Positions 23,673 to 39,959 are shown, numbered from the stretch's first letter. The stretch is DNA of 64,000 bases from Escherichia coli (GCF_024223415.1 NZ_CP100501.1); one strand, 5' to 3'. Notes: generated from the sequence alone by a model not told the origin. Numbers and translations are program-made.

Positions 23673-24599
23673 ATGCCAAACTGGTGCTCAAATCGTATGT
23701 ATTTTTCTGGTGAACCGGCACAGATTGCTGAGATTAAACGACTGGCCAGCGGTGCAGTCACACCGTTTTATCGCCGCGCCACAAATGAAGGTATTCAGCT
23801 GTTTCTGGCCGGAAGTGCCGGACTTCTGCAGACCACTGAAGATGTGCGGTTTGAACCATGTCCCGGACTGACGGCTGCCGGACGTGGCGTTGTATCGCCG
23901 GAGAATATCGCGTTCACCCGCTGGCTGACATACCTGCAGGACGGTGTACTGCTGGATGAGCAAAACTGCCTGATGCTGCATGAACTCTGGCTGCAGAGCG
24001 GTACTGGACAGCGTCGCTGGGAAGGATTACCGGACGATGTCAGGGATACCATCACCGCACTTTTCACCGCAAAAAGAGGTGACTGGTGTGGCTTCTGGAG
24101 TAACGAAGATGTATCGGTGTGGTGGAACCGTCTGTGTGACAACGTACTGCCGGAAAAAACCATGCCGTTTGACCTGCTGACGGTTCTGCCCACCCGCCTG
24201 GATGTTGAAGTGAATGGCTTTAACGGTGGTGTTCTGAACGGTGTTCCTTCTGCATATCACTGGTATACGGAACGGTATGGCGTGAAGTGGCCTGTGGGGT
24301 ATGAGGTGAATATCAGTAATCAGGGAGACAACTTCATTAAGGTGGATTTCGACACGCCGTGGTGTCAGCCGGAAAGCGACGTTATTGCAGAATTAAGCCG
24401 CCGTTTCAGCTGCACGCTGGAGCACTGGTATGCCGAACAGGGCTGTGATTTCTGTGGCTGGCAGTTGTATGAGCGCGGAGAGCTCGTTGATGTGCTGTGG
24501 GGGGAACTGGAATGGTCTTCCCCGACAGATGACGATGAGCTGCCGGAAGTCACCGGACCTGCGTGGATAGTCGACAATGTGGCGCATTATGGCGGATGA
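23673..24599 (+). CDS. Hypothetical leading-region protein
   Basis: Start MPNWCSNRMYF at ATG 23673 with GAGAGGAG RBS; conserved-looking, function unknown. Confidence 0.6.
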   Translation: MPNWCSNRMYFSGEPAQIAEIKRLASGAVTPFYRRATNEGIQLFLAGSAGLLQTTEDVRFEPCPGLTAAGRGVVSPENIAFTRWLTYLQDGVLLDEQNCLMLHELWLQSGTGQRRWEGLPDDVRDTITALFTAKRGDWCGFWSNEDVSVWWNRLCDNVLPEKTMPFDLLTVLPTRLDVEVNGFNGGVLNGVPSAYHWYTERYGVKWPVGYEVNISNQGDNFIKVDFDTPWCQPESDVIAELSRRFSCTLEHWYAEQGCDFCGWQLYERGELVDVLWGELEWSSPTDDDELPEVTGPAWIVDNVAHYGG

Positions 24600-24981
24600 A
24601 GTATGACGGAGACGGGCGGGCAACTGCCCGTTTCTTTTCCGGTAAAGGATGTCGCCATGCTCCTCTTTTTACTGCGCCGGCTGACGCGGCGCGGCATAAA
24701 CGCTGCCTGTGGTCAGTGTCCCGCGTCCGGTGGGCACGGGACGGGCGCTTTTACCGCTCCCGGCTGGCGTCGGTGACAGTGTACGCCAGCCTGTCGCCCT
24801 TTTCTGATGAACGCCCTTCAAGCCGCTTTCGCGGCATAACCTTGCCGTCAAACAGACGACGGCTGCGGTATTCCACGGTCGGCCTGACCCGTTACCGGAC
24901 GCGGTGAACAGCCCACAGGCAGCGGGGAACGGGCACCACAGGGGTGCCCTCCCGGTGCCCCCTGTAAGAGAAGGAGCTGTT

Positions 24982-25665
24982 ATGTCCCGTTTTATCCTGG
25001 GTGACTGCGTGCGTGTTATGGCCACGATTCCTGATAACGCCATTGATTTCATATTAACCGATCCGCCATATCTCGTCGGTTTCCGTGACCGTTCCGGGCG
25101 CACCATTGCCGGTGACGTTAATGATGACTGGCTGCAACCGGCCTGTAATGAGATGTACCGCGTACTCAAAAAAGACGCGCTGATGGTCAGCTTCTACGGC
25201 TGGCACCGTATTGACCGCTTTATGGCGGCCTGGAAACGCGCCGGATTCAGCGTGGTTGGCCACCTGGTCTTCACCAAAAACTACACATCCAAATCTGCGT
25301 ATGTCGCGTACCGCCACGAATGCGCTTACATCCTGGCAAAGGGCAGTCCGGCCCGGCCCCGTAACCCGCTGCCGGATGTGCTGGGCTGGAAATATTCGGG
25401 CAACCGCCATCACCCGACGGAAAAGCCCGTTACCAGCCTGCAACCGCTGATTGAGAGCTTCACACATCCGAACGCGATTGTGCTGGATCCGTTTGCAGGC
25501 AGCGGTTCAACCTGCGTGGCCGCCCTTCAGTCCGGACGCCGGTATATCGGTATCGAGCTGCTTGAACAGTATCACCGTGCCGGACAGCAACGACTGGCCG
25601 CCGTGCAACGGGCCATGCAGCAGGGGGCCGCGAATGATAACTGGTTTATGCCGGAGGCTGCGTAA
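24982..25665 (+). CDS. Orphan DNA methyltransferase (N6-adenine/N4-cytosine class, beta-group order)
   Basis: DPPY motif near the N-terminus and FAGSGST near the C-terminus; start MSRFILGD with GAAGGAG RBS; no adjacent restriction gene. Confidence 0.85.
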   Translation: MSRFILGDCVRVMATIPDNAIDFILTDPPYLVGFRDRSGRTIAGDVNDDWLQPACNEMYRVLKKDALMVSFYGWHRIDRFMAAWKRAGFSVVGHLVFTKNYTSKSAYVAYRHECAYILAKGSPARPRNPLPDVLGWKYSGNRHHPTEKPVTSLQPLIESFTHPNAIVLDPFAGSGSTCVAALQSGRRYIGIELLEQYHRAGQQRLAAVQRAMQQGAANDNWFMPEAA

Positions 25666-25887
25666 ATGAACTATGCCGGACACGAAAAACTTCGCGCCGA
25701 CGTGGCGGAGGTGGCCAATGCCATGTGCGACCTGCGTACAACCATGAATGAGATGGAGCGGCGGTACAGCTTTAATGCTGACACCCTGCCGGAACGTCTG
25801 GTGCGTCAGACGTTGTTTCGCGCAAACCGCCTCCTGATGGAGGCATATACCGAAATTCTGGAACTGGATTCCTGCTTCAAAGATTGA
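25666..25887 (+). CDS. Hypothetical small protein
   Basis: 73-aa ORF tightly packed after the methyltransferase. Confidence 0.5.
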   Translation: MNYAGHEKLRADVAEVANAMCDLRTTMNEMERRYSFNADTLPERLVRQTLFRANRLLMEAYTEILELDSCFKD

Positions 25888-25900
25888 GAAGGAGACGAGA

Positions 25901-26335
25901 ATGTACGGAACATGCGAAACGCTATGCCGGGCGCTGGCAGCAAAGTATCCGGGAGATACGCCGCTGATGCTGGTTATCTGGTCCCCGGAAGAAATTCAGG
26001 CCCTCGCTGACGGAATGGATATTTCCCTGTCCGATCATGAAATCAGGACTGTCCTGGCGCGGCTGGCGGACATCCCGGAAGACCAGCGGACTGAGTCCGG
26101 TATTTCTTCCGGCGTGGCGATGGAGATTATCAGCAACGTGAGCGAAAACCGCCAGGTGACCGTCCCGGCTGAACTGCTGGCGTCCCTGATTCAGACCGCC
26201 GAACAGGCACTGTGGAAACGTGAATGGGCCGCCCGTGATTACGGCCTCGCCGTCCCGGAATGCGTCACCCGCCGTCAGGCGGTGGTTAATCAGGCCCGCA
26301 TCCTGCTGAAAAACAACCCACACGAAAACGACTGA
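25901..26335 (+). CDS. Hypothetical leading-region protein
   Basis: 144-aa ORF; shares a ...R.VTVPA.LL... block with the ORF at 28037..28456. Confidence 0.55.
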   Translation: MYGTCETLCRALAAKYPGDTPLMLVIWSPEEIQALADGMDISLSDHEIRTVLARLADIPEDQRTESGISSGVAMEIISNVSENRQVTVPAELLASLIQTAEQALWKREWAARDYGLAVPECVTRRQAVVNQARILLKNNPHEND

Positions 26336-26379
26336 TGTTATCGCCGCCTTCGGGCGGCGATTCAGGGAGACCATGAATC

Positions 26380-27150
26380 ATGAACAAAACGCTGAATGCA
26401 CTGGTTTGTCACCACGCCCGTAACCTGCTGCTGGCGCAGGGCTGGCCGGAAGAGACGGATGTTGACCAGCGTAACCCGAAGTATCCGGGCTGGATCAGCA
26501 TTTATGTTCTGCTGGATGCGCCCCGGCTGGCGACGTTACTTATCAACCGTCACGGCGGCGTACTGCCGCCGCTCCTGGCCTCCGCCATTCACAAACTGAC
26601 CGGAACCGGGGCGGAAGTTGTACTGTCCGGCAGTCAGTGGCAGTCGCTGCCGGTACTTCCGGCAGACGGAACGCAGGTGTCTTTCCCGTATGCCGGAGAA
26701 TGGCTGACCGAAGACGAAATCAGGGCAGTTCTTGATGCAGTGCGCGATGCGGTACGCAGTGTCAGTTGCCGGGTGACAGAAGATGCGCGGCGTATCAGGG
26801 CGGCGCTGACCACAACCGGTCAGACGTTGCTGACCCGCCAGACGCGGCGCTTTCGCCTGGTTGTGAAGGAAAGCGATCACCCCTGCTGGCTCGATGAAGA
26901 CGACGAAAACCTGCCCGTGGTGCTCGATGCCATCCTGAACCGGGGCGCTCGTTTTTCTTCGGTGGAAATGTATCTGGTCAGTGAGTGTGTGGAGCATATC
27001 CTGTCCAGTGGGCTGGCCTGCGATGTGCTGCGTATACCGGATGAACCGCCCCGCCGGTGGTTTGACCGTGGTGTTCTGCGGGAGGTGGTCCGGGAAGCCC
27101 GGGCCGAAATCCGCAGCATGGCGGATGCCCTGGCAAAAATCCGGAAATGA
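26380..27150 (+). CDS. Hypothetical leading-region protein
   Basis: 256-aa ORF with RBS. Confidence 0.55.
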
Positions 27151-27217
27151 TGACGCTGGCGGGGAAAAATCTCCGCCTTTTCCAGCCGGTCCCCGGAAAG
27201 AGCAAAAGGATGTCGCC

Positions 27218-27548
27218 GCAGGCTCCGCTTTACTCGGCCATGCGGGGCATGGCCTTGTGGGTTTTCAGTTATGTGGCCTCAGCGTCGTGTGCGGGCTGTG
27301 CCGTGCCTCCATCGTAGCCGGGCTTCTGCGGGCGGGTTGCAAGGTAAGGTGAACCGCTGCGGTCACCCGGTCCCTCCTTCCCGTCTGCCGTGATTTTCCG
27401 GTCGTTCACCCGCTCAGATTTCGCGGTCTCACCCTCCAACTCCCGCCAGCCGTGTGCGTCAGGCTGCGGCTTCCCTTGCGCCCTTGCAACCCTGCAGGCC
27501 CGGCAAAGATGGAGGCACGGCACCGCCCGGTGTCGCGGAATATGTGAA
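27218..27548 (+). repeat. Leading-region repeat family A, copy 1 (single-strand promoter-like)
   Basis: About 330 bp, near-identical by eye to 34139..34478; ends about 17 bp before the klcA start. Confidence 0.6.
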
Positions 27549-27564
27549 CAACGGAGGAAATCCC

Positions 27565-27990
27565 ATGCAGTATGCGAAACCTGTCACCCTGAACGTTGAA
27601 GAGTGCGACCGCCTTTCTTTTCTGCCTTACCTGTTTGGCAACGATTTTCTGTATGCCGAGGCGTATGTGTACGCGCTGGCGCAAAAAATGATGCCGGAAT
27701 ATCAGGGAGGCTTCTGGCATTTCATCCGCCTGCCGGACGGTGGCGGTTACATGATGCCGGATGGCGACCGTTTTCATCTGGTCAACGGTGAAAACTGGTT
27801 TGACCGCACTGTGAGTGCTGATGCCGCAGGCATCATTGTTACGTCTCTTGTGATTAACCGCCAGTTGTGGCTGTACCACGACAGCGGGGATGCGGGACTG
27901 ACACACCTGTACCGGATGCGTGATGCGCAGTTGTGGCGTCACATCGAATTTCACCCCGAATGCAACGCGATTTACGCGGCACTGGACTGA
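27565..27990 (+). CDS. klcA: Antirestriction protein KlcA/ArdB family
   Basis: MQYAKPVTLNVEECDRLSFLPYLFGNDFLYAE... with GGAGGA RBS. Confidence 0.85.
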   Translation: MQYAKPVTLNVEECDRLSFLPYLFGNDFLYAEAYVYALAQKMMPEYQGGFWHFIRLPDGGGYMMPDGDRFHLVNGENWFDRTVSADAAGIIVTSLVINRQLWLYHDSGDAGLTHLYRMRDAQLWRHIEFHPECNAIYAALD

Positions 27991-28036
27991 TTAACGGACG
28001 GGGCGGCAATGCCGCCCCTGTAAAGGAGACGAGAAC

Positions 28037-28456
28037 ATGTACTGTACTGTTAAAGAAATTATCCGCGAAGTGCTGAATACAGACGTGCCGGACAGTGAAT
28101 GTGTTTTTGCCGTGGTGCTGACCCGCGGGGATGTGCGCCACATAGCCCGGGACTGGAACCTGTCAGACGATGAGCTGGAAACCGTCATGCAGCGGCTGGA
28201 CGATGCTTTTGTATATGGCGCATGTGACAGAGTTGTTTCCGATATTGTCAATGAACTGATGGAGGAAAAGCGCGTAAACCGTCTTGTAACAGTTCCTGCG
28301 GTGCTGCTGGAAAAAGTGATGGTGATGGCTGGTAGTGAAATTTATCGCCTCCATGCTGTAGGGAGCGAGAACGGGGGCGACGGTGACGCATTTGTCAGGG
28401 AAGAACGTGAGATTATGCGGGTAATGCGTCAGGCGCTGGACGGGGAGAACGGGTAA
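28037..28456 (+). CDS. Hypothetical leading-region protein
   Basis: 139-aa ORF, paralog-like to 25901..26335. Confidence 0.55.
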   Translation: MYCTVKEIIREVLNTDVPDSECVFAVVLTRGDVRHIARDWNLSDDELETVMQRLDDAFVYGACDRVVSDIVNELMEEKRVNRLVTVPAVLLEKVMVMAGSEIYRLHAVGSENGGDGDAFVREEREIMRVMRQALDGENG

Positions 28457-28647
28457 TGAATATCAGCACGGAAACCCGCGAAATTCTGCGTAATTACAGG
28501 GCCGTGATTAATGCGCGGCGTCGTGAAATGGGGCAGAAACCGCTCACCACCGCGCAGATTGTTGATGAAATCTGTGATTTTGTGGCGAATCAGCAGGCGG
28601 TTTTCCTCGGTGGTCACTATATCCTTCAGGGCAGCAGGCACAGGTGA
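28456..28647 (+). CDS. Hypothetical small protein
   Basis: 63-aa ORF overlapping the upstream stop. Confidence 0.4.
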   Translation: MNISTETREILRNYRAVINARRREMGQKPLTTAQIVDEICDFVANQQAVFLGGHYILQGSRHR

Positions 28648-28832
28648 TACAGGGGCAGGCGGTGGAGGCCGCCTGTCAGCCCGCGCGAAAACCCCTGGCA
28701 GGCTGGCGCCTGCCGGAAGGGATGCGGGCCACGCTGGCGCGTCGCCCGTTACCCTTCCTGTTGGTGACAGGCGTTGTTTCAGGAAGTACCTGTTACAGAC
28801 CTGTCGTTAAAGAACCTTCTTACACATGCGCC

Positions 28833-29395
28833 CCTTCGGCTCCCGGCTGCCTGGCGGCATCCGGTCGTCAGGCCCGACTCCGACAGGCAGCTGCTGGCGC
28901 ACCCGCCAGTCTCCGCCGAACCCGCTGGCGCGGTTTCGGGCTGTCGCTACGGTCCGATGCGTGAAAACCCGGGCTTGCAGCGACCGTTCCGGTCGCGCCG
29001 CCTCTGTCGCGCCGTGACCTGCGCTCCCTGCACACCTGACGGTGTGTGAGGAAACTGCGCCTGATGGCGCAGCAGTCCTCCCTCCTGCCGCCACCTCTGC
29101 GGCCTGTTTCCCGCTGTGGACTTTCCGGGGGGCAGACGTAACCCCCTCCCGTTCCATCTGTCCAGGGTGAGATGCACCGGCCACAAAATTTTTAGCCATG
29201 AACCCGGCAAAAAATTTTGCGTCCGCCCCCGGACAGCTGCCCCGTGAGGCGGTAAACGGGCCCCCATCGGAAAGGTCCACTGCGGGGAGAAACCCCTGTG
29301 AAGTGGACGGCAGGAGGAGCTTTCGCTCCTCTGAAGGGGCACATGAACGTCCCGTCGCCGGTATCCGGTTTATCTCACATCTTTCAGTCAGGAGG
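28833..29395 (+). repeat. Leading-region repeat family B, copy 1 (single-strand promoter-like), upstream of ssb
   Basis: About 560 bp GC-rich block, highly similar by eye to 35179..35720 and, over its 3' about 360 bp, to 38229..38585. Confidence 0.6.
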
Positions 29396-29400
29396 TTCTT

Positions 29401-29922
29401 ATGAGTGCACGTGGTATCAACAAGGTCATCCTCGTCGGGCGTCTGGGCAATGATCCGGAAGTCTGTTACATCCCCAACGGGGGCGCAGTGGCAAACCTGC
29501 AGGTCGCCACGTCAGAAAGCTGGCGCGACAAACAGACGGGGGAGATGCGGGAGCAGACGGAATGGCACCGCGTGGTGCTGTTCGGCAAGCTCGCGGAAGT
29601 GGCTGGTGAATATCTGCGCAAGGGCGCGCAGGTCTACATCGAGGGGCAACTCCGTACCCGTAGCTGGGAGGATAACGGTATCACCCGTTACGTCACTGAA
29701 ATTCTTGTTAAGACCACGGGCACCATGCAGATGCTGGGGAGTGCACCACAGCAGAACGCTCAGGCGCAACCGAAGCCTCAGCAGAATGGGCAGCCACAGA
29801 GTGCTGACGCGACGAAAAAAGGTGGCGCGAAAACGAAAGGCCGTGGACGTAAGGCCGCGCAGCCGGAGCCTCAGCAGCCGTCTGAACCCGCGTATGACTT
29901 CGATGACGACATTCCGTTCTAA
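29401..29922 (+). CDS. ssb: Single-stranded DNA-binding protein
   Basis: [21 protein letters not shown]... OB-fold N-terminus, acidic C-terminal tail DFDDDIPF. Confidence 0.95.
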
Positions 29923-29950
29923 CGAAAGACAGTGACAACCGCCCCGTCCA

Positions 29951-30211
29951 GTGCGGGGCATCACCGGAGAGATGAGGATGAGCGAATATTTCAGAATACT
30001 TCAGGGACTGCCTGACGGTCCTTTTACCCGCAAACATGCCGAAGCCGTTGCCGCACAGTACCGGAATGTCTTTATCGAGGATGATCAGGGAACGCATTTT
30101 CGCCTGGTTGTCCGCAATAACAGTGGCCTGGTCTGGCGTACCTGGAATTTTGAGGACGGTGCCGGGTACTGGATGAACCATGCCATCCGTGATTTCGGCA
30201 TTCTTAAGTAA
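29951..30211 (+). CDS. Hypothetical small protein
   Basis: 86-aa ORF between ssb and the ParB-like gene. Confidence 0.5.
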
Positions 30212-30274
30212 GAGAGGTGCCGGACGGGAACGCGTCCGGCAGACATACAACCATCCCGGTCAAAGGAGAAATAT

Positions 30275-32233
30275 ATGTCAGTTACAGAGTCTAAGACAAA
30301 AACGGAGCGTAAATCCAGCCGTAAACCTGCAAAAACGCAGGAAACCGTCCTGTCAGCCCTGCTGGCGCAGACGGAGGAAGTGAGCGTGCCGCTGGCCTCG
30401 CTGATTAAATCACCGCTGAATGTGCGCACGGTGCCGTATTCTGCGGAGTCTGTCAGCGAACTGGCGGACTCCATTAAAGGTGTCGGCCTGTTACAGAATC
30501 TGGTTGTTCATGCCCTGCCAGGTGACCGTTACGGTGTCGCCGCAGGCGGTCGCCGACTGGCTGCACTCAACATGCTGGCAGAGCGTGGCATCCTTACGGC
30601 TGACTGGCCTGTACGCGTGAAGGTTATTCCGCAGGAGCTGGCGACTGCCGCATCAATGACTGAAAACGGTCATCGTCGGGATATGCACCCTGCTGAACAG
30701 ATCGCCGGATTCCGCGCAATGGCGCAGGAAGGCAAAACACCTGAGCAGACTGGCGACCTGCTGGGCTATTCACCCCGCCACGTCCAGCGAATGCTGAAAC
30801 TGGCAGACCTTGCACCCGTCATCCTTGATGCGCTGGCAGAAGACCGCATCACCACCGAACACTGTCAGGCGCTGGCGCTGGAGAACGACACCGCGCGTCA
30901 GGTGCAGGTGTTTGAAGCCGCCTGCCAGTCAGGATGGGGCGGTAAACCGGATGTGCGGGTTATCCGCAACCTGATTACCGAAAGTGAAGTGGCGGTGGCG
31001 GGGAACAGTAAATTCCGCTTCGTGGGGGCTGATGCCTTCTCGCCAGACGAACTGCGCACCGATTTGTTCAGCGATGACGGGGACGGTTATGTCGACCGCG
31101 TGGCGCTCGATGCCGCCCTGCTGGAAAAACTCCAGGCTGTCGCTGAACACCTTCGGGAAGCCGAAGGCTGGGAATGGTGCGCCGGGCGCATGGAGCCTGT
31201 CGGTGAGTGCCGTGAGGATGCCGGAACATACCGCTGTCTGCCGGAGCCGGAAGCGGTGCTGACGGAGGCGGAATACGAACGCCTGAACGAACTGATGACG
31301 CGTTACGACGCGCTGGAAAACCAGTGTGAGGAATCCGACCTGCTGGAAGCAGAAATGAAGCTGATGCGCTGCATGGCGAAGGTCAGAGCGTGGACGCCGG
31401 AGATACGTGCCGGAAGCGGTGTGGTGGTGTCCTGGCGTTATGGCAACGTATGTGTCCAGCGTGGTGTGCAGTTGCGCAGTGAAGATGACGCGACTGACGA
31501 CGCTGACCGCACGGAACAGGTGCAGGAGAAAGCGTCAGTGGAGGAAATCAGCCTGCCGTTGCTGACGAAAATGTCCTCAGAGCGCACGCTGGCAGTCCAG
31601 GCGGCACTCATGCAGCAGCCGGACAAATCCCTGACACTGCTGGCATGGACGCTCTGCCTGAATGTGTTTGGCAGCGGGGCGTACAGTAAACCAGCACAAA
31701 TCAGCCTGGAATGTGAACATTATTCGCTGACCAGCGATGCGCCATCGGGGAAGGAAGGTGCCGCATTCATGGCGCTGATGGCAGAAAAATCCCGTCTTGC
31801 AGCCCTGCTGCCGGAGGGATGGTCACGGGACATGACGACATTCCTGTCCCTCAGTCAGGAGGTGCTGTTATCCCTGCTCAGTTTCTGCACCGCATGCAGC
31901 CTTAACGGTGTCCAGACCCGTGAGTGTGGTCACACGTCACGCAGTCCGCTTGACTCGCTGGAAATCGCTATCGGATTCCACATGCGCGACTGGTGGCAGC
32001 CGACAAAAGCAAACTTCTTCGGACACCTGAAAAAGCCACAAATTATCGCAGCCCTGAATGAGGCCGGACTGTCCGGTGCCGCACGGGACGCGGAGAAGAT
32101 GAAGAAAGGTGATGCGGCTGAACATGCAGAGCACCATATGAAAGACAACCGCTGGGTTCCAGGCTGGATGTGTGCACCACATCCACAGACAGATGCCACT
32201 GAACGCACCGATAACCTGGCTGATGCCGCCTGA
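30275..32233 (+). CDS. ParB/Srx-like nuclease-domain protein of the leading region
   Basis: 652-aa ORF; N-terminal ParB-type block (...LQNLVVHALPGDRYGVAAGGRRLAAL...). Confidence 0.8.
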   Translation: MSVTESKTKTERKSSRKPAKTQETVLSALLAQTEEVSVPLASLIKSPLNVRTVPYSAESVSELADSIKGVGLLQNLVVHALPGDRYGVAAGGRRLAALNMLAERGILTADWPVRVKVIPQELATAASMTENGHRRDMHPAEQIAGFRAMAQEGKTPEQTGDLLGYSPRHVQRMLKLADLAPVILDALAEDRITTEHCQALALENDTARQVQVFEAACQSGWGGKPDVRVIRNLITESEVAVAGNSKFRFVGADAFSPDELRTDLFSDDGDGYVDRVALDAALLEKLQAVAEHLREAEGWEWCAGRMEPVGECREDAGTYRCLPEPEAVLTEAEYERLNELMTRYDALENQCEESDLLEAEMKLMRCMAKVRAWTPEIRAGSGVVVSWRYGNVCVQRGVQLRSEDDATDDADRTEQVQEKASVEEISLPLLTKMSSERTLAVQAALMQQPDKSLTLLAWTLCLNVFGSGAYSKPAQISLECEHYSLTSDAPSGKEGAAFMALMAEKSRLAALLPEGWSRDMTTFLSLSQEVLLSLLSFCTACSLNGVQTRECGHTSRSPLDSLEIAIGFHMRDWWQPTKANFFGHLKKPQIIAALNEAGLSGAARDAEKMKKGDAAEHAEHHMKDNRWVPGWMCAPHPQTDATERTDNLADAA

Positions 32234-32284
32234 TGAACAACCACACCGCCCCGCCGGAGACGGGGCGGCAGCAAGGGAGATACC

Positions 32285-32722
32285 GTGATGAAAACTGAAC
32301 TGACCCTGAATGCCCTGCAGTCCATGAACGCACAGGAATATGAAGATATCCGTGCTGCGGGAAGCGATATGCGCCGTAATCTCACTCACGAGGTGATGCG
32401 TGAAGTGGACGCACCGGCTAACTGGATGATGAATGGCGAGTATGGCAGTGAGTTCGGGGGCTTTTTCCCCGTCCAGGTTCGTTTCACGCCAGCCCACGAA
32501 CGTTTCCACCTGGCATTATGTTCGCCGGGAGACGTCTCTCAGCTCTGGATGCTGGTTCTGGTGAGTGGTGGTGGACAGCCTTTCGCCGTCGTTCAGGTGC
32601 AACATATCTTCACGCCTGTCGCGATCAGTCACACGCTGGCGCTCGCCGCGACACTTGATGCGCAGGGATACAGTGTTAACGACATCATTCATATTTTGAT
32701 GGCAGAAGGAGGTCAGGCATGA
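32285..32722 (+). CDS. psiB: Plasmid SOS inhibition protein B
   Basis: [28 protein letters not shown]...; upstream of and overlapping psiA. Confidence 0.9.
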
Positions 32723-33438
32723 GCGCACGTTCACGGGCACTGATCCCCCTCAGCGCAGAACAACAGGCCGCTATGCAGGCTGTGGCTGTCACCGAACAAC
32801 GTCGTCGTCAGGGACGCACACTTTCAGCATGGCCTTATGCCACCGCTTTCTTTCGCTGCCTGAATGGCAGTCGCCGGATTTCGCTGACCGATCTCCGCTT
32901 TTTTGCCCCTGCGCTGACGAAGGAGGAATTTCATGGCAACCGTCTCCTGTGGCTGGCTGCAGTGGACAAACTGATTGAAAGTTTTGGTGAAGTCTGTGTT
33001 CTTCCCCTGCCATCCGATGCGGGGCATCGTTTGTTCCCGTCCGTTCCTTTTCGTGAAGGTGAGCGGCGTCGTCAGAAAACCACGCTGACAGAGCAGAAAT
33101 ACAGCCGCCAGCGGGAACGTGAGGCAGAACGACGGGAACGGGAATACCAGACATGTTTTGCTCAGGCGCAGATTGACCTTGCGTTTCATACTCCCGCCAC
33201 GGTCGGAAGCTGGTTGTCCCGCTGGTCTGGTGTTGTTGAGGAGCATGATCTGGAAACGATTTTCTGGGGGTGGTGCGGGCGTTTTCCATCACTGTCATCA
33301 TTTGACCGGTTTTTCTGGCAGGAGGAACCACTCTGGCGGTTGATTTTTGAAGCCGGTGAGGCCGGTCGTGGTGCACCGGTACAGGTACGTGCACTTGAGC
33401 AGTGGATGATCCCGAACAAGCTGGAGAACGTAATATGA
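32719..33438 (+). CDS. psiA: Plasmid SOS inhibition protein A
   Basis: 239-aa [25 protein letters not shown]... Confidence 0.9.
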
Positions 33439-34031
33439 TGAAATCAGACGAAAAATACCAGGTTCCCGCGTGGATGCGACCTCTGTTGCCGTTGCTCTGC
33501 AACACCGGGGAGAACGATCCGGAAGAACTGCTGAATGATACAGAAACCACTGCCAGTGCGAATGTTGTCCGTTATGTGCTGATAGTTGCTGTGCGGTCGC
33601 AGGTTGATCTGCTGCAGCTTCTGTACAGGAAAGGGCTGTTGCGCACAGAGATACCAGGTGGCTTTTCACCGGAAGAAGCGCAGGAACTCCTGGATAATCT
33701 GGTGCGCAGCCATATCAGCAGGGCGCTGTCGGGTGAGCGAATGGCAGCCCGTGACAGGAATGCCGATCTGGCCTGGATTCGACAGCAACTGGTCGATGCC
33801 GCCTGGTTTGTCCGTGCCACACTGGAAGCGCATGGGATGAGCGTCGGAAATGAGAGTCCCCCTGCTCAGCCGGAGACAATGCCGGACATACAGACACGGG
33901 AACTGGTGATGTTGATCAAGCGACTGGCATCATCGCTGAAAGCGGTGAAACCGGACAGTTGTGTGGTGCGTGAAGCGCAGGACTGGCTGCGCGACAGAAA
34001 ACTTGTGAGCATCACGGATGTTCTTCGGTGA
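33435..34031 (+). CDS. Hypothetical leading-region protein
   Basis: Start MMKSDEKYQ; overlaps the psiA stop. Confidence 0.55.
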   Translation: MMKSDEKYQVPAWMRPLLPLLCNTGENDPEELLNDTETTASANVVRYVLIVAVRSQVDLLQLLYRKGLLRTEIPGGFSPEEAQELLDNLVRSHISRALSGERMAARDRNADLAWIRQQLVDAAWFVRATLEAHGMSVGNESPPAQPETMPDIQTRELVMLIKRLASSLKAVKPDSCVVREAQDWLRDRKLVSITDVLR

Positions 34032-34138
34032 ACCAGTGGAGGTATGCTTGAGGAGCAGGGACATGCCGGTCATGATCGTTTCGTTCCAGGGGTGGTCTGG
34101 AGATCATGCGGCGTGTCCTCTGCACTCGCCGGAATAAG

Positions 34139-34478
34139 GACGTCGCCGCCGGCTCCGCTTTTACCCGGCCATGCGGGGCATGGCCTTGTGGGTTTTCAGC
34201 TCTGTGGCCTCAGCGTCGTGTGCGGGCTGTGCCGTGCCTCCATCGTAGCCGGGCTTCTGCGGGCGGGATGCAAGGTAAGATGAACCGCTGCGGTCACCCG
34301 GTCCCTCCTTCCCGTCTGCCGTGATTTTCCGGTCGTTCACCCGCTCAGATTTCGCGGTCTCACCCTCCAACTCCCGTCAGCCGTGCGCGTCGGGCTGCGG
34401 CTTTCCTTGCGCCCTTGCATCCCTGCAGGCCCGGCAAAGATGGAGGCACGGCACCGCCCGGTGTCGCAGAACATGTGA
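34139..34478 (+). repeat. Leading-region repeat family A, copy 2, upstream of ardA
   Basis: Near-identical by eye to 27218..27548. Confidence 0.6.
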
Positions 34479-34495
34479 CTATGGAGGATTCGGGA

Positions 34496-34996
34496 ATGTC
34501 TGTTGTTGCACCTGCTGTATACGTTGGAACCTGGCACAAATATAACTGCGGAAGCATCGCCGGCCGCTGGTTTGACCTGACCACGTTTGATGATGAACGC
34601 GATTTTTTCGCCGCCTGCCGTGCCCTTCACCAGGATGAAACCGATCCGGAACTGATGTTTCAGGATTATGAGGGTTTCCCGGGGAATATGGCCTCTGAAT
34701 GTCATATCAACTGGGCCTGGGTTGAAGGCTTCCGCCGGGCACGGGATGAAGGCTGCGAAGAGGCTTATCGTCTCTGGGTGGATGATACCGGTGAGACGGA
34801 TTTTGACAGCTTCCGCGATGCCTGGTGGGGCGAGGCTGACAGTGAGGAGGCTTTTGCGGTTGAGTTCGTCAGTGATACCGGCCTGCTGGCTGACGTGCCG
34901 GAGACGGTGGCGCTCTATTTTGACTATGAGGCGTATGCGCGGGATTTATTCCTGGACTCCTTCACCTTTATTGACGGTCATGTGTTCCGTCGGTGA
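34496..34996 (+). CDS. ardA: Antirestriction protein ArdA
   Basis: MSVVAPAVYVGTWHKYNCGSIAGRWFDLTTFDDERDFF..., strongly acidic 166-aa protein; GGAGGA RBS. Confidence 0.9.
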   Translation: MSVVAPAVYVGTWHKYNCGSIAGRWFDLTTFDDERDFFAACRALHQDETDPELMFQDYEGFPGNMASECHINWAWVEGFRRARDEGCEEAYRLWVDDTGETDFDSFRDAWWGEADSEEAFAVEFVSDTGLLADVPETVALYFDYEAYARDLFLDSFTFIDGHVFRR

Positions 34997-35178
34997 TTTA
35001 CTCCCCCGCTCCGGCGGGGGTATGGCCTGCCGGGCCGCCGGAAAACCCTGGCAGGCTTACGCCTGCCTGAAATACAGGAGGGCCGCGCCTGCGGCGCTGC
35101 CCTTCCTGCCCGTCATGGTGTGAGGCATTTTTCTGTTTTGTCGTTTCTGTTGTTCTGATGCCCGGAGGCGGGGACACC

Positions 35179-35720
35179 CTTCGGCTCCCGGCTGCCTGGC
35201 GGCATCCGGTCGTCGGCCCGACTCCGACAGGCAGCTGCTGGCGCACCCGCCAGTCTCCGCCGAACCCGCTGGCGCGGTTTCGGGCTGCCGCTACGGTCCG
35301 ATGTCTGAAAAACCAGGCCTGCAGCGACCGTTCCGGTCGCGCCGCCCCTGTCGCGCCGGAAACGGCGCTCCCTGCACACCTGACGGTGTGTAAGGCCACT
35401 GCGCCTGATGGCGCAGTCAACCCTTCCGCCGCCACCCCTGCGGCCTGTTTCCCGCTGTGGACTTTCCGGGGGCTGAAGCGGCCACAACACGGGGCAGCCG
35501 TCCAGGGGAGAGATGTACCAGCCACAAAACTTTTTGCCGCAGGCGTCAAAAACTTTTGCGTCTGCCCCCGGACAACTGCCCCGTGCCGTGGCAGTCGCTG
35601 CCCCATCGGAAAGGTCCACTGCGGGGAGAAACCCCGAAGAAGTGGACGGCAGAAGGGGCTTTCGCCCCTCCGGGGGAGCAACCGGTCGGCCCGGCGACCT
35701 GATTCAGCAGAAGGAGACGT
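35179..35720 (+). repeat. Leading-region repeat family B, copy 2
   Basis: Similar by eye to 28833..29395; immediately upstream of the ORF at 35725. Confidence 0.6.
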
Positions 35721-35724
35721 TTTC

Positions 35725-36159
35725 ATGACAGTCAGCAGCACGATTTCCGTTTTTTGCCGAGACGGGGTGTTCCGTACCGTTTACTGCCACCTGCACGGTG
35801 AGCCGACCTGGAACGGTCGCATCCTGCATACCCACTATGCCACCGGTCAGCTGGCCGAAGCCCTGGTTGAACACGGAGATATCCGTTGCCTCGGTCCCCG
35901 TTGCGACAAACCCGCCGGGCATACGCTTCAGAACCCGGTGGACGGTGTGACGGCTTATTACGGACGTGACAGTGGTTTCCGGATGGACAGTGAGGCGCGT
36001 GAGTACCGTTCTTTCAGGGAGGCTATTGCCACTGAAAGCACTGAAGAGGTGCGCTTCCATTATGTGTTCATCGACGGCTACTGGAAGGTGATGTACCGCA
36101 CGCCGGAAGGCTGGAAGATGAAAGCGCTCGCGCTGGCACTGCGTCGCTGTCCGGAATGA
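35725..36159 (+). CDS. Hypothetical leading-region protein
   Basis: Start MTVSSTISVF at ATG 35725 with GAAGGAGA RBS; 144 aa, Cys/His-containing. Confidence 0.6.
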   Translation: MTVSSTISVFCRDGVFRTVYCHLHGEPTWNGRILHTHYATGQLAEALVEHGDIRCLGPRCDKPAGHTLQNPVDGVTAYYGRDSGFRMDSEAREYRSFREAIATESTEEVRFHYVFIDGYWKVMYRTPEGWKMKALALALRRCPE

Positions 36160-38010: not shown

Positions 38011-38228
38011 AAAACACCTTTGAAAAAGTGAAAAAACTTCACTTTATTTTATCATCACAATTGCCAAATCAGCGCGATAAATAAGTGTAAAAAAGTGAAG
38101 AAATTTCACTTTTTTTGGTTGTAAATGTCGTGCGGTTTTCTCTGTTTTCACCTGTGCGGGAGTGGTGTGCCAGTGACCACCACATGCCATTGTTGTGCCG
38201 TCGTTTTTCTTCAGTCGCGCCGGATGCG

Positions 38229-38585
38229 GCGCTCCCTGCACACCTTACGGTGTGTAAGGCCACTGCGCCTGATGGCGCAGCTGCCTCTGCCTGTCTGCCG
38301 CCGCACTGCGGCCTGTTCTCCGCAGACGGACTTTCCGGGGGTACATACACGACCACATCCCGTTTCAGTCGTCCAGGGGAGAGATGTACCAGCCACAAAA
38401 CTTTTTGCCGCAGGCGTCAAAAACTTTTGCGTCTGCCCCCGGACAACTGCCCCGTGACGTGGTGAGCGTCCCCCGTCGGAAAGGTCCACTGCGGGGAAAT
38501 CCCCGAAGACCCGGACGGCAGAAGGAGCTTCGCTCCTCCGGGAAATGACCTGGCTGACCCGGCAGTCGTGACGATGAGGAGACAA
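38229..38585 (+). repeat. Leading-region repeat family B, copy 3 (shorter), upstream of the ORF at 38587
   Basis: Similar by eye to the 3' about 360 bp of the other B copies. Confidence 0.55.
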
Positions 38586-38586
38586 T

Positions 38587-39438
38587 GTGATGAATCAGAC
38601 TTTACCCACTGCTGACCTGAATACTGCCGGCACGACAGATGTTATTCCGTCTGTGGCTATCGACCGCATCATCGCGCAGCGTAACGAAGGTATTGCACTG
38701 TTCATGCAGGCGATGGAATGCCTGGCGACAGCGCGCAGGATTCTGCTCGATGCTTCCGGTGACATTTTTCTCTACGGGTTTGAAGACTGCGTGACTGACT
38801 CCGTTCGATGCATGGATAAACCGGAAGAAGCGAAAAGGAATATCACCCGTCTTGCCGACCGGAAAATCTGGGACCGCCTGATGACAGATACGGGCATGTA
38901 CACCTTCATGAGTTCATGCCAGCGTGATGAGTGGAACAGCCAGCTGATGAGCGACACCTGTCCTGAAATCACCCTGGACAATGTACTGGCAACATTCCGC
39001 CATCTTAATGCCAGCAAGATGCAGACATTTGAACAGGGACTGATTGATGTCTACCGGAAATTGTCATGGGATTACAGAACCAATAATCCCTGCCGTCTGG
39101 GCAAGAAAATCATTATTGAAAACCTGCTGTACCGCTGGAGTAACGGGCGTGTGACGCTGGACTGCAGCAGACGGGAGGCACTGGATGACCTGGTACGTCC
39201 GTTTTATCTGCTGGAGGGGCGCAACGTTCCTGACTTCAGGAACAGCATCGGGGCGCAGTATGGTGAATTTCTCAGGAACGGCGACAATGTCGGTAAGTTG
39301 TTAGAAGGGGAATATTTTACGGTGCGTGGCTACCAGAAAGGGACCGTACACATTGTCTTTAAGCGTTCTGACCTTGTTGAAAAACTGAATGATATTATTG
39401 CACGGCATTATCCTGGTGCATTGCCGCCACGAGTCTGA
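38587..39438 (+). CDS. Hypothetical protein; first plus-strand leading-region gene next to oriT
   Basis: 283-aa ORF with GAGGAG RBS, directly behind B-repeat copy 3. Confidence 0.65.
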   Translation: MMNQTLPTADLNTAGTTDVIPSVAIDRIIAQRNEGIALFMQAMECLATARRILLDASGDIFLYGFEDCVTDSVRCMDKPEEAKRNITRLADRKIWDRLMTDTGMYTFMSSCQRDEWNSQLMSDTCPEITLDNVLATFRHLNASKMQTFEQGLIDVYRKLSWDYRTNNPCRLGKKIIIENLLYRWSNGRVTLDCSRREALDDLVRPFYLLEGRNVPDFRNSIGAQYGEFLRNGDNVGKLLEGEYFTVRGYQKGTVHIVFKRSDLVEKLNDIIARHYPGALPPRV

Positions 39439-39865: not shown

Positions 39866-39959
39866 TTTCTCTCCGTTTAATCTTGAAGCCTGATTTTATC
39901 ATCAAAAACTGACTCCTGGCAGGGCTGCGCCCTGCCTCTGCCGTCTGCATAAGACTATG

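Follow-up and report, generated by a model that had tools for sequence, protein, structure and literature searches.

Seven small open reading frames among the anti-restriction genes of an IncK2/Z-like conjugative plasmid's leading region

What is encoded by the small open reading frames (ORFs) that lie between the known anti-restriction genes of a conjugative plasmid, and are new anti-defence proteins to be found among them? The question is raised by a stretch of 64,000 nucleotides of Escherichia coli DNA (GCF_024223415.1, NZ_CP100501.1; hereafter the window), in which positions 24982–34996 carry an orphan methyltransferase gene, klcA, ssb, a ParB-like gene, psiB, psiA and ardA, interleaved with seven small ORFs. 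The segment belongs to an I-complex (IncK2/Z-like, MOBP) conjugative plasmid, of which it forms the leading region. The explanation that best accounts for the whole, and in which we have high confidence, is a canonical F/I-complex leading region with an early burst of expression from single-stranded DNA (ssDNA) promoters and seven genuine, co-transcribed ORFs. A first-pass annotation, made from the sequence, had listed these ORFs as places to look for new anti-defence activities, and all of them are present on the + strand at the positions it gave. They are, with lengths in amino acids (aa):

25666..25887, + strand: YubE family (PF27407), 73 aa; phrog_4830, E = 2.6e-34
25901..26335, + strand: DUF1380 (PF07128) protein YubF/YcgB, 144 aa, acidic, predicted helical; Pfam 178 bits, cut-off 26
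26380..27150, + strand: YubG/YchA family, 256 aa ('YffB'; yffB in the usage of the Lesterlin group)
28037..28456, + strand: diverged DUF1380 paralogue YubJ/YcjA, 139 aa, net charge -12
28456..28647, + strand: YubK/YffA, 63 aa, basic; the start overlaps the preceding stop codon
29978..30211, + strand: DUF905 protein YubL/YfjA, 77 aa; Pfam DUF905 113.7 bits
33435..34031, + strand: YgaA, 198 aa; one of 77 close homologues is named YgaA

The region has a guanine-plus-cytosine (GC) content of 55–64%, and chance ORFs of more than 100 codons are abundant in it on both strands; therefore the reality of the seven ORFs needed checking. That some of them are chance open frames in GC-rich DNA is an explanation favored by the many long spurious ORFs and by the doubtful coding sequences (CDSs) that public records annotate inside the hairpins of the region. 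It is refuted for the listed ORFs by a codon-level comparison with F or IncK2/Z orthologues, in which the ratio of nonsynonymous to synonymous substitution rates (dN/dS) was 0.06–0.41 for all seven. A Shine-Dalgarno sequence is present at every one of them, three are translationally coupled to the gene upstream, their lengths are conserved in F and pESBL, and most have strong family matches, which leaves a chance origin scarcely credible. The claim of the first-pass annotation that at least seven small ORFs lie between the known genes is thus upheld by ribosome-binding sites, codon constraint, and conserved order and lengths. Five of the seven were reported with a PHROG family of their own at E <= 1e-30. 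The PHROG matches were weak or partial for DUF1380b (2.2e-4) and for YgaA (4.2e-9, through a shared C-terminal stretch of about 50 residues), and no PHROG match was found for the 63-aa ORF. Pfam thresholds were reached by two of the seven, the DUF1380 protein (178 bits) and the DUF905 protein (about 114 bits).

The individual ORFs differ in how closely they can be assigned. YubE starts directly after the stop codon of the methyltransferase gene and has a dN/dS of 0.14 against F; its homologue on a contig of GCA_044751685.1 carries the label PF27407:YubE in precomputed annotation. The 28037–28456 product scores 19.7 bits with Pfam DUF1380, under the cut-off of 26, yet is 29% identical to the 25901–26335 product at E = 3e-8, and is therefore a paralogue that has diverged and not a strict member of the Pfam family. 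Its dN/dS is 0.27 and its homologues are named DUF1380/YcjA in databases; the paralogous pair that the first-pass annotation had recognized is accordingly real. YubK is 96.8% identical to its F counterpart in amino acids and 92.6% in nucleotides (dN/dS 0.06), and no family match in Pfam or PHROG and no match in PDB was found for it. For the DUF905 gene the most probable start is ATG 29978, which yields 77 aa as in F, and not GTG 29951; transconjugant-specific expression of F YfjA has been reported, as cited in Wen et al. (2025). YgaA belongs to a narrow family among the plasmids sampled (77 close homologues), is absent from F, has a dN/dS of 0.19–0.26, and matches phrog_660 and phrog_924 with its C-terminal 50 residues. 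YubG homologues at 25–29% identity are still leading-region genes, with ArdA or KlcA as immediate neighbors and DUF1281 and umuDC close by, and the YubG family is a stable leading-region component.

Two of these families have further relatives by position or sequence. The same GCA_044751685.1 contig, from a more distant plasmid, has a 267-aa and a 262-aa gene in tandem between DUF1380 and KlcA (6799–8789 of locus L008). The 262-aa gene is a member of the YubG/YchA family (P0337), and the 267-aa gene resembles a second paralogue by its size and position. Over residues 73–151 (window 33651–33887), YgaA has about 55% identity to lambdoid and Stx-phage proteins that carry the annotation Ea22/DUF551, the match being to their C-terminal third (compared locus L009, 2501–2749). 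These phage proteins adjoin xis and int; the module is common to the plasmid leading region and the phage early accessory region.

The assignment of the segment to a leading region follows from its known genes and from its position relative to the origin of transfer (oriT). The known genes are as follows:

24982..25665, + strand: orphan N6-adenine DNA methyltransferase, M.EcoGIX/YfeA/YfbB family, 227 aa
27565..27990, + strand: KlcA/ArdB anti-restriction protein, 141 aa; Pfam Antirestrict 93.8 bits
29401..29922, + strand: plasmid SSB; Pfam SSB 123.7 bits
30275..32233, + strand: ParB-like CTP-binding protein with a helix-turn-helix (HTH) DNA-binding domain, orthologue of F YfjB/HerB, 652 aa; ParB_N and HTH_ParB
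32285..32722, + strand: PsiB, SOS inhibitor; Pfam PsiB 191 bits
32719..33438, + strand: PsiA; Pfam PsiA 139.6 bits
34496..34996, + strand: ArdA, DNA-mimic anti-restriction protein, 166 aa; Pfam ArdA 105.6 bits

Curated thresholds were passed by ArdA, KlcA, PsiB, PsiA and the orphan methyltransferase, and the known genes have dN/dS values of 0.04–0.27. Thus the orphan methyltransferase, klcA, ardA, psiB/psiA, ssb and the ParB-like gene that the first-pass annotation described for this leading region are all borne out by Pfam and NCBIfam matches. KlcA is 97.9% identical to F YubI/YfgB. ArdA, with an isoelectric point (pI) of 4.13 and a net charge of -24, is 100% identical to the ArdA of pCh101. 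To our knowledge, KlcA/ArdB has been documented only against type I systems. The methyltransferase scores 134.7 bits with Pfam N6_N4_Mtase and 489 bits with NCBIfam PRK13699 (cut-off 244), and is 91.6% identical to the F enzyme. A domain scan detected no nuclease domain beside it, its neighbors being DUF1281 and YubE, so that it is indeed an orphan, as had been proposed. The F methyltransferase (YfeA) is 91% identical to M.EcoGIX. Enzymes of the M.EcoGIX type place N6-methyladenine (m6A) at SAY motifs of single strands and give the entering plasmid an orientation-dependent protection from restriction (Yamaichi et al., 2015; Fomenkov et al., 2020). Since SAY single-strand methylation is known for M.EcoGIX only, the window enzyme is a putative counterpart.

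The elements that orient the region lie to its right:

39866..40091, no strand assigned: oriT-containing interval, between a divergent 113-aa ORF and nikA/relaxase, outside the segment under study
40092–40424: nikA
40436–43138: MOBP relaxase, 900 aa

With nikA and the relaxase to the right, oriT is placed within 39866–40091, and the same nikA/relaxase layout around this interval is found in pCh101 and pESBL. Because oriT lies to the right of the genes, 24982–34996 is the leading region; the distance to oriT is about 5 kb for the start of ardA and about 15 kb for the methyltransferase. The + strand carries all credible genes of 23.6–36.2 kb, and the genes of 23.6–39.4 kb all point toward NikA/relaxase, with the exception of one small HTH ORF. 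The transferred strand, here the minus strand, is the template for the leading-region genes. More than 5000 PLSDB plasmids match the 10-kb segment; the best matches are IncK2/Z, MOBP, MPF_I plasmids at 95–96% identity (95.8% for the top match over 10 kb), and the gene order of the segment is common to F and pESBL.

The ParB-like protein is instructive for the reading of the whole set. Along the full 652 residues it shares 94% identity with F YfjB, conserves the DNA-contact residues R168, R172 and K175, and has the length and the ParB N-terminal and HTH domains of HerB/YfjB, a protein of four-domain architecture. A 2026 preprint has renamed YfjB as HerB and reported that it binds CTP and chromosomal DNA, reprograms host transcription and offsets the cost of plasmid acquisition. 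The Pfam name 'ParB-like nuclease domain' is historical, and by sequence the window protein is a HerB/YfjB orthologue. The first-pass annotation was right that a ParB-like gene is present; its nuclease-domain label is misleading, because the protein is orthologous to HerB. It had also grouped this gene with the anti-restriction set, and the role reported for HerB is the reprogramming of host transcription, not the countering of defence.

The intergenic gaps of the region hold hairpins that, by their sequences, match three published classes of ssDNA promoters. The hairpins were folded as transferred-strand DNA and z-scores were taken against shuffled controls. Those that precede the operons under study, as putative promoters, are:

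24709..24924, - strand: class-3-type ssDNA promoter hairpin, upstream of the methyltransferase operon (intergenic 24600–24981)
27206..27558, - strand: class-2 ssDNA promoter copy 1, homologue of F ssp2, upstream of klcA
28832..29357, - strand: class-1 (Frpo/ssi-type) ssDNA promoter, upstream of ssb
34136..34488, - strand: class-2 ssDNA promoter copy 2, upstream of ardA

The class-3 hairpin has an ssDNA folding energy of -105.3 kcal/mol (z = -5.8) and is 95% identical to the F region upstream of the methyltransferase. The two class-2 copies, of about 350 nt, are 95–97% identical to each other; copy 1 is 88% identical to the region upstream of klcA in F and folds with z = -4.6. The class-1 element, of about 500 nt, occurs in three copies (28832–29357, 35177–35696 and 38211–38542). 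Its ssDNA fold reaches -173.9 kcal/mol (z = -9.9), and it has partial matches (70–96%) to both Frpo regions of F. The copy at 38211–38542 lies just upstream of a DUF4942 gene (38587–39438), about 1.4 kb from oriT. No sigma-70 consensus was found on the + strand between 24.5 and 36.5 kb, and an Rfam scan found no family within 24982–34996. Wen et al. (2025) have reported that six operons of pESBL are induced up to about 500-fold at 15 min after entry, each from an ssDNA promoter, with starts mapped by rapid amplification of 5' complementary DNA ends (5' RACE). They distinguished class 1 (ssi/Frpo), class 2 (the klcA and ardA pair) and class 3 (M.EcoGIX). In F, ssp2 (class 2) is a block to complementary-strand synthesis that lasts until the host helicase UvrD has resolved it, and early expression is thereby prolonged. 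Public records also place 'hypothetical protein' CDSs inside GC-rich ssDNA-promoter hairpins, at window 24603–24908 and 28644–28964. Equivalents of these CDSs are found in two compared loci (L001 5619–5924 and 9682–9984; L003 3785–4090 and 7808–8164), and they are probably annotation artefacts.

Taken with the published work, these elements suggest how the region may act. The leading region would be the first DNA to enter the recipient, as the single minus strand, and its hairpins (one class-3, two class-2 and three class-1 in the window) would act as ssDNA promoters, so that host RNA polymerase would transcribe the + strand genes for a few minutes, until the promoters are shut off upon complementary-strand synthesis. 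The burst would yield a promiscuous single-strand m6A methyltransferase that blunts restriction, KlcA/ArdB and ArdA that inhibit type I restriction, SSB, PsiB and PsiA that suppress SOS, and HerB that reprograms host transcription. YubE, YubF, YubG, YubJ, YubK, YubL and YgaA would be co-transcribed in three of these operons, and their products may be small non-enzymatic proteins that bind host factors met just after entry, with a benefit conditional on the recipient strain.

Several results weigh against this account. A linear scan of the hairpin arms turned up no -35/-10 boxes scoring 8 or higher out of 12 against the consensus; because the boxes could not be placed by a simple scan, the case for promoter status is one of homology to elements that have been mapped on other plasmids. 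The roles of the seven ORFs are ones that we infer, and protein binding is a guess drawn from small size, the lack of enzymatic domains and the acidity of some of the products. The predicted model of YubG is confident, with a predicted local distance difference test (pLDDT) score of 91, and a structure search of PDB found no known structural neighbor for it. HerB is a counter-example in its own right, showing that leading-region genes need not be anti-defence genes.

Structure and remote-homology searches were made on the ORFs, this being the check that the first-pass annotation had proposed for each, and they gave no function and no anti-defence similarity; nor did the ORFs all fall into characterized families with non-defence roles. 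Sequence searches of PDB with all seven ORFs, and profile searches with two, gave as the only match that of the DUF905 protein to YkfF (2hjj; E = 3.7e-21). YkfF, the DUF905 protein of E. coli K-12, is a clear homologue of ORF 29978–30211, but it is chromosomal and its structure is without an assigned function. A literature search for functions of DUF1380, DUF905, YkfF and Yub proteins found none. The predicted model of the DUF1380 protein was poor, and viral contigs scanned with a DUF1380 alignment yielded no relatives. An assignment of DUF1380 to the acyl-carrier 'PP-binding' domain was rejected, the Pfam scores of 15–17 bits being below the cut-off of 20.8. Comparisons with hhalign found no internal duplication in YubG and no relationship between YubG and DUF1380. 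A 17-residue motif with 41% identity is common to YubG (26701–26751) and the DUF1380 protein (26024–26074, SLSDHEIRTVLARLADI); the profile comparison gave P = 0.095, which is not significant.

Whether the seven include a genuine new anti-defence protein, such as an inhibitor of type II or other restriction, bacteriophage exclusion (BREX) or clustered regularly interspaced short palindromic repeats (CRISPR) that binds a defence protein directly, has to be weighed against these results. The ORFs lie interspersed among three proven anti-restriction genes and are co-transcribed with them, and YubG homologues keep their place beside ArdA or KlcA at low identity. Samuel et al. (2024) have listed six of the seven families, as 'uncharacterized', among their top 100 leading-region families, with DUF905 at rank 2, YffA/AreA at 6, DUF1380 at 7, YchA/YubG at 10, YfcA at 11 and YcjA/YubJ at 14; YgaA appears only in a small later family. 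On the other side, no sequence or structural similarity was found between the seven ORFs and characterized anti-restriction or anti-CRISPR proteins. When Samuel et al. compared these families by Foldseek with structures of anti-CRISPR and anti-restriction proteins, nearly all members came back as NA. None of the seven is as acidic as the DNA mimic ArdA or approaches it in charge density. On this balance a new anti-defence protein among the seven is possible but falls short of probable.

The only functional pointer comes from the F plasmid without ssp2, the promoter of the klcA operon. Its transfer is down at least 21-fold into wild E. coli strains. Into a recipient with the type II system EcoGIII it falls 36-fold, a defect that another single-strand promoter swapped into the place of ssp2 rescues, and into an EcoKI recipient 5-fold. 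Because F without ssp2 loses transfer into the EcoGIII recipient while the documented activity of KlcA/ArdB is against type I, YubJ and YubK, which lie behind klcA, may be the best anti-restriction candidates among the seven; this deduction is ours and not that of the paper describing the deletion. The 36-fold loss leaves room for YubJ or YubK, and KlcA itself, or an influence on the upstream methyltransferase transcript, could also account for it. The more specific proposal, that the ORFs include one or more anti-defence proteins of a new kind, with YubJ and YubK, or YubG with its confidently predicted fold that lacks a PDB neighbor, as lead candidates, is put forward as a doubtful one. If true, it would explain the type II restriction of F lacking ssp2.

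A different possibility is that the ORFs are establishment factors apart from defence, acting on host physiology, on the conversion of single to double strands, or on the activity of the methyltransferase, KlcA, SSB or PsiB. HerB, encoded in the same operon as YubL, is a precedent. Leading-region hairpins together with the host helicase UvrD control complementary-strand synthesis, and M.EcoGIX works in complex with DNA polymerase I, which makes accessory partners plausible. In its operon, each DUF1380 paralogue follows an anti-restriction gene: YubJ comes immediately behind klcA, and YubF is preceded by the methyltransferase and YubE. However, in one compared locus (L006) a KlcA homologue is not followed by a DUF1380 gene, so that DUF1380 is not an obligate partner of KlcA. 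Roles in establishment of this kind have, in our judgment, nearly an even chance of being correct.

The canonical leading region with an early ssDNA-promoter burst, which we prefer as the explanation of the whole, has close published counterparts. In pESBL (IncI1), compared here by its published description, the gene order is identical to that of the window, which is an IncK2/Z-like relative. Of the 14 ORFs that run from M.EcoGIX through ArdA, ten agree in length and four differ by 3–6 nt. The seven ORFs correspond there to Hp9–Hp15, including YchA and YgaA (Yamaichi et al., 2015). As in the window, pESBL has a class-2 pair before klcA and ardA, three class-1 copies, and a distinct element before the methyltransferase. 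From the methyltransferase to psiB, F agrees with the window in gene content and order, and the proteins are 77–98% identical. Its class-2 and class-3 elements are 88–95% identical, whereas the class-1 element matches Frpo only partly. The stretch of F that was examined has neither YgaA nor ArdA in its annotation, psiB being followed there by hok/flm and DUF932 genes, and the relaxase is of the MOBF type in F and MOBP in the window.

Samuel et al. (2024) have described anti-defence islands that share with the window the oriT-side position, template-strand orientation, anti-defence genes, orphan methyltransferase, SSB and Frpo-type promoters, and from which it differs in nothing structural; the position, orientation and known anti-defence genes by which they define an island are all found here. 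The anti-defence reading of the first-pass annotation is the hypothesis of these authors; it is sound, and the present analyses neither strengthen nor refute it. Yamaichi et al. (2015) have shown by transposon sequencing of pESBL that the seven ORFs are non-essential for maintenance and for transfer to laboratory E. coli, a result that fits a host-dependent benefit and also no role.

Other features of the window adjoin the segment or lie further away. Directly upstream of the methyltransferase operon is a DUF1281/Api92-like protein of 308 aa (23673–24599; pI 4.4, net charge -23), another leading-region family with an overall acidity close to that of ArdA. Behind the second class-1 hairpin is a 144-aa ORF (35725–36159) labeled 'post-segregation killing protein PndC' in pCh101; the label looks like a carried-over mislabel, because the ORF is without a Pfam match and its PHROG families are only function-less ones. 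Elsewhere in the window, Rfam matches a sok antitoxin RNA (58936–59092), an AgrB-type antisense RNA (55817–55904) and three ALIL pseudoknots (6132–6218, 44391–44477 and 50042–50158).

Overall, the segment is a standard leading region of a kind already published, to which the window adds no element beyond the literature, and the concept of leading-region anti-defence is likewise already in print (Samuel et al., 2024; Wen et al., 2025; Fraikin et al., 2026). Thousands of resistance plasmids of the IncF and IncI-complex types in Enterobacteriaceae carry the families concerned, which are expressed within minutes of transfer. To know their roles would explain how such plasmids become established in wild hosts and might offer targets against plasmid spread, as the literature has already stated and as is under active study.

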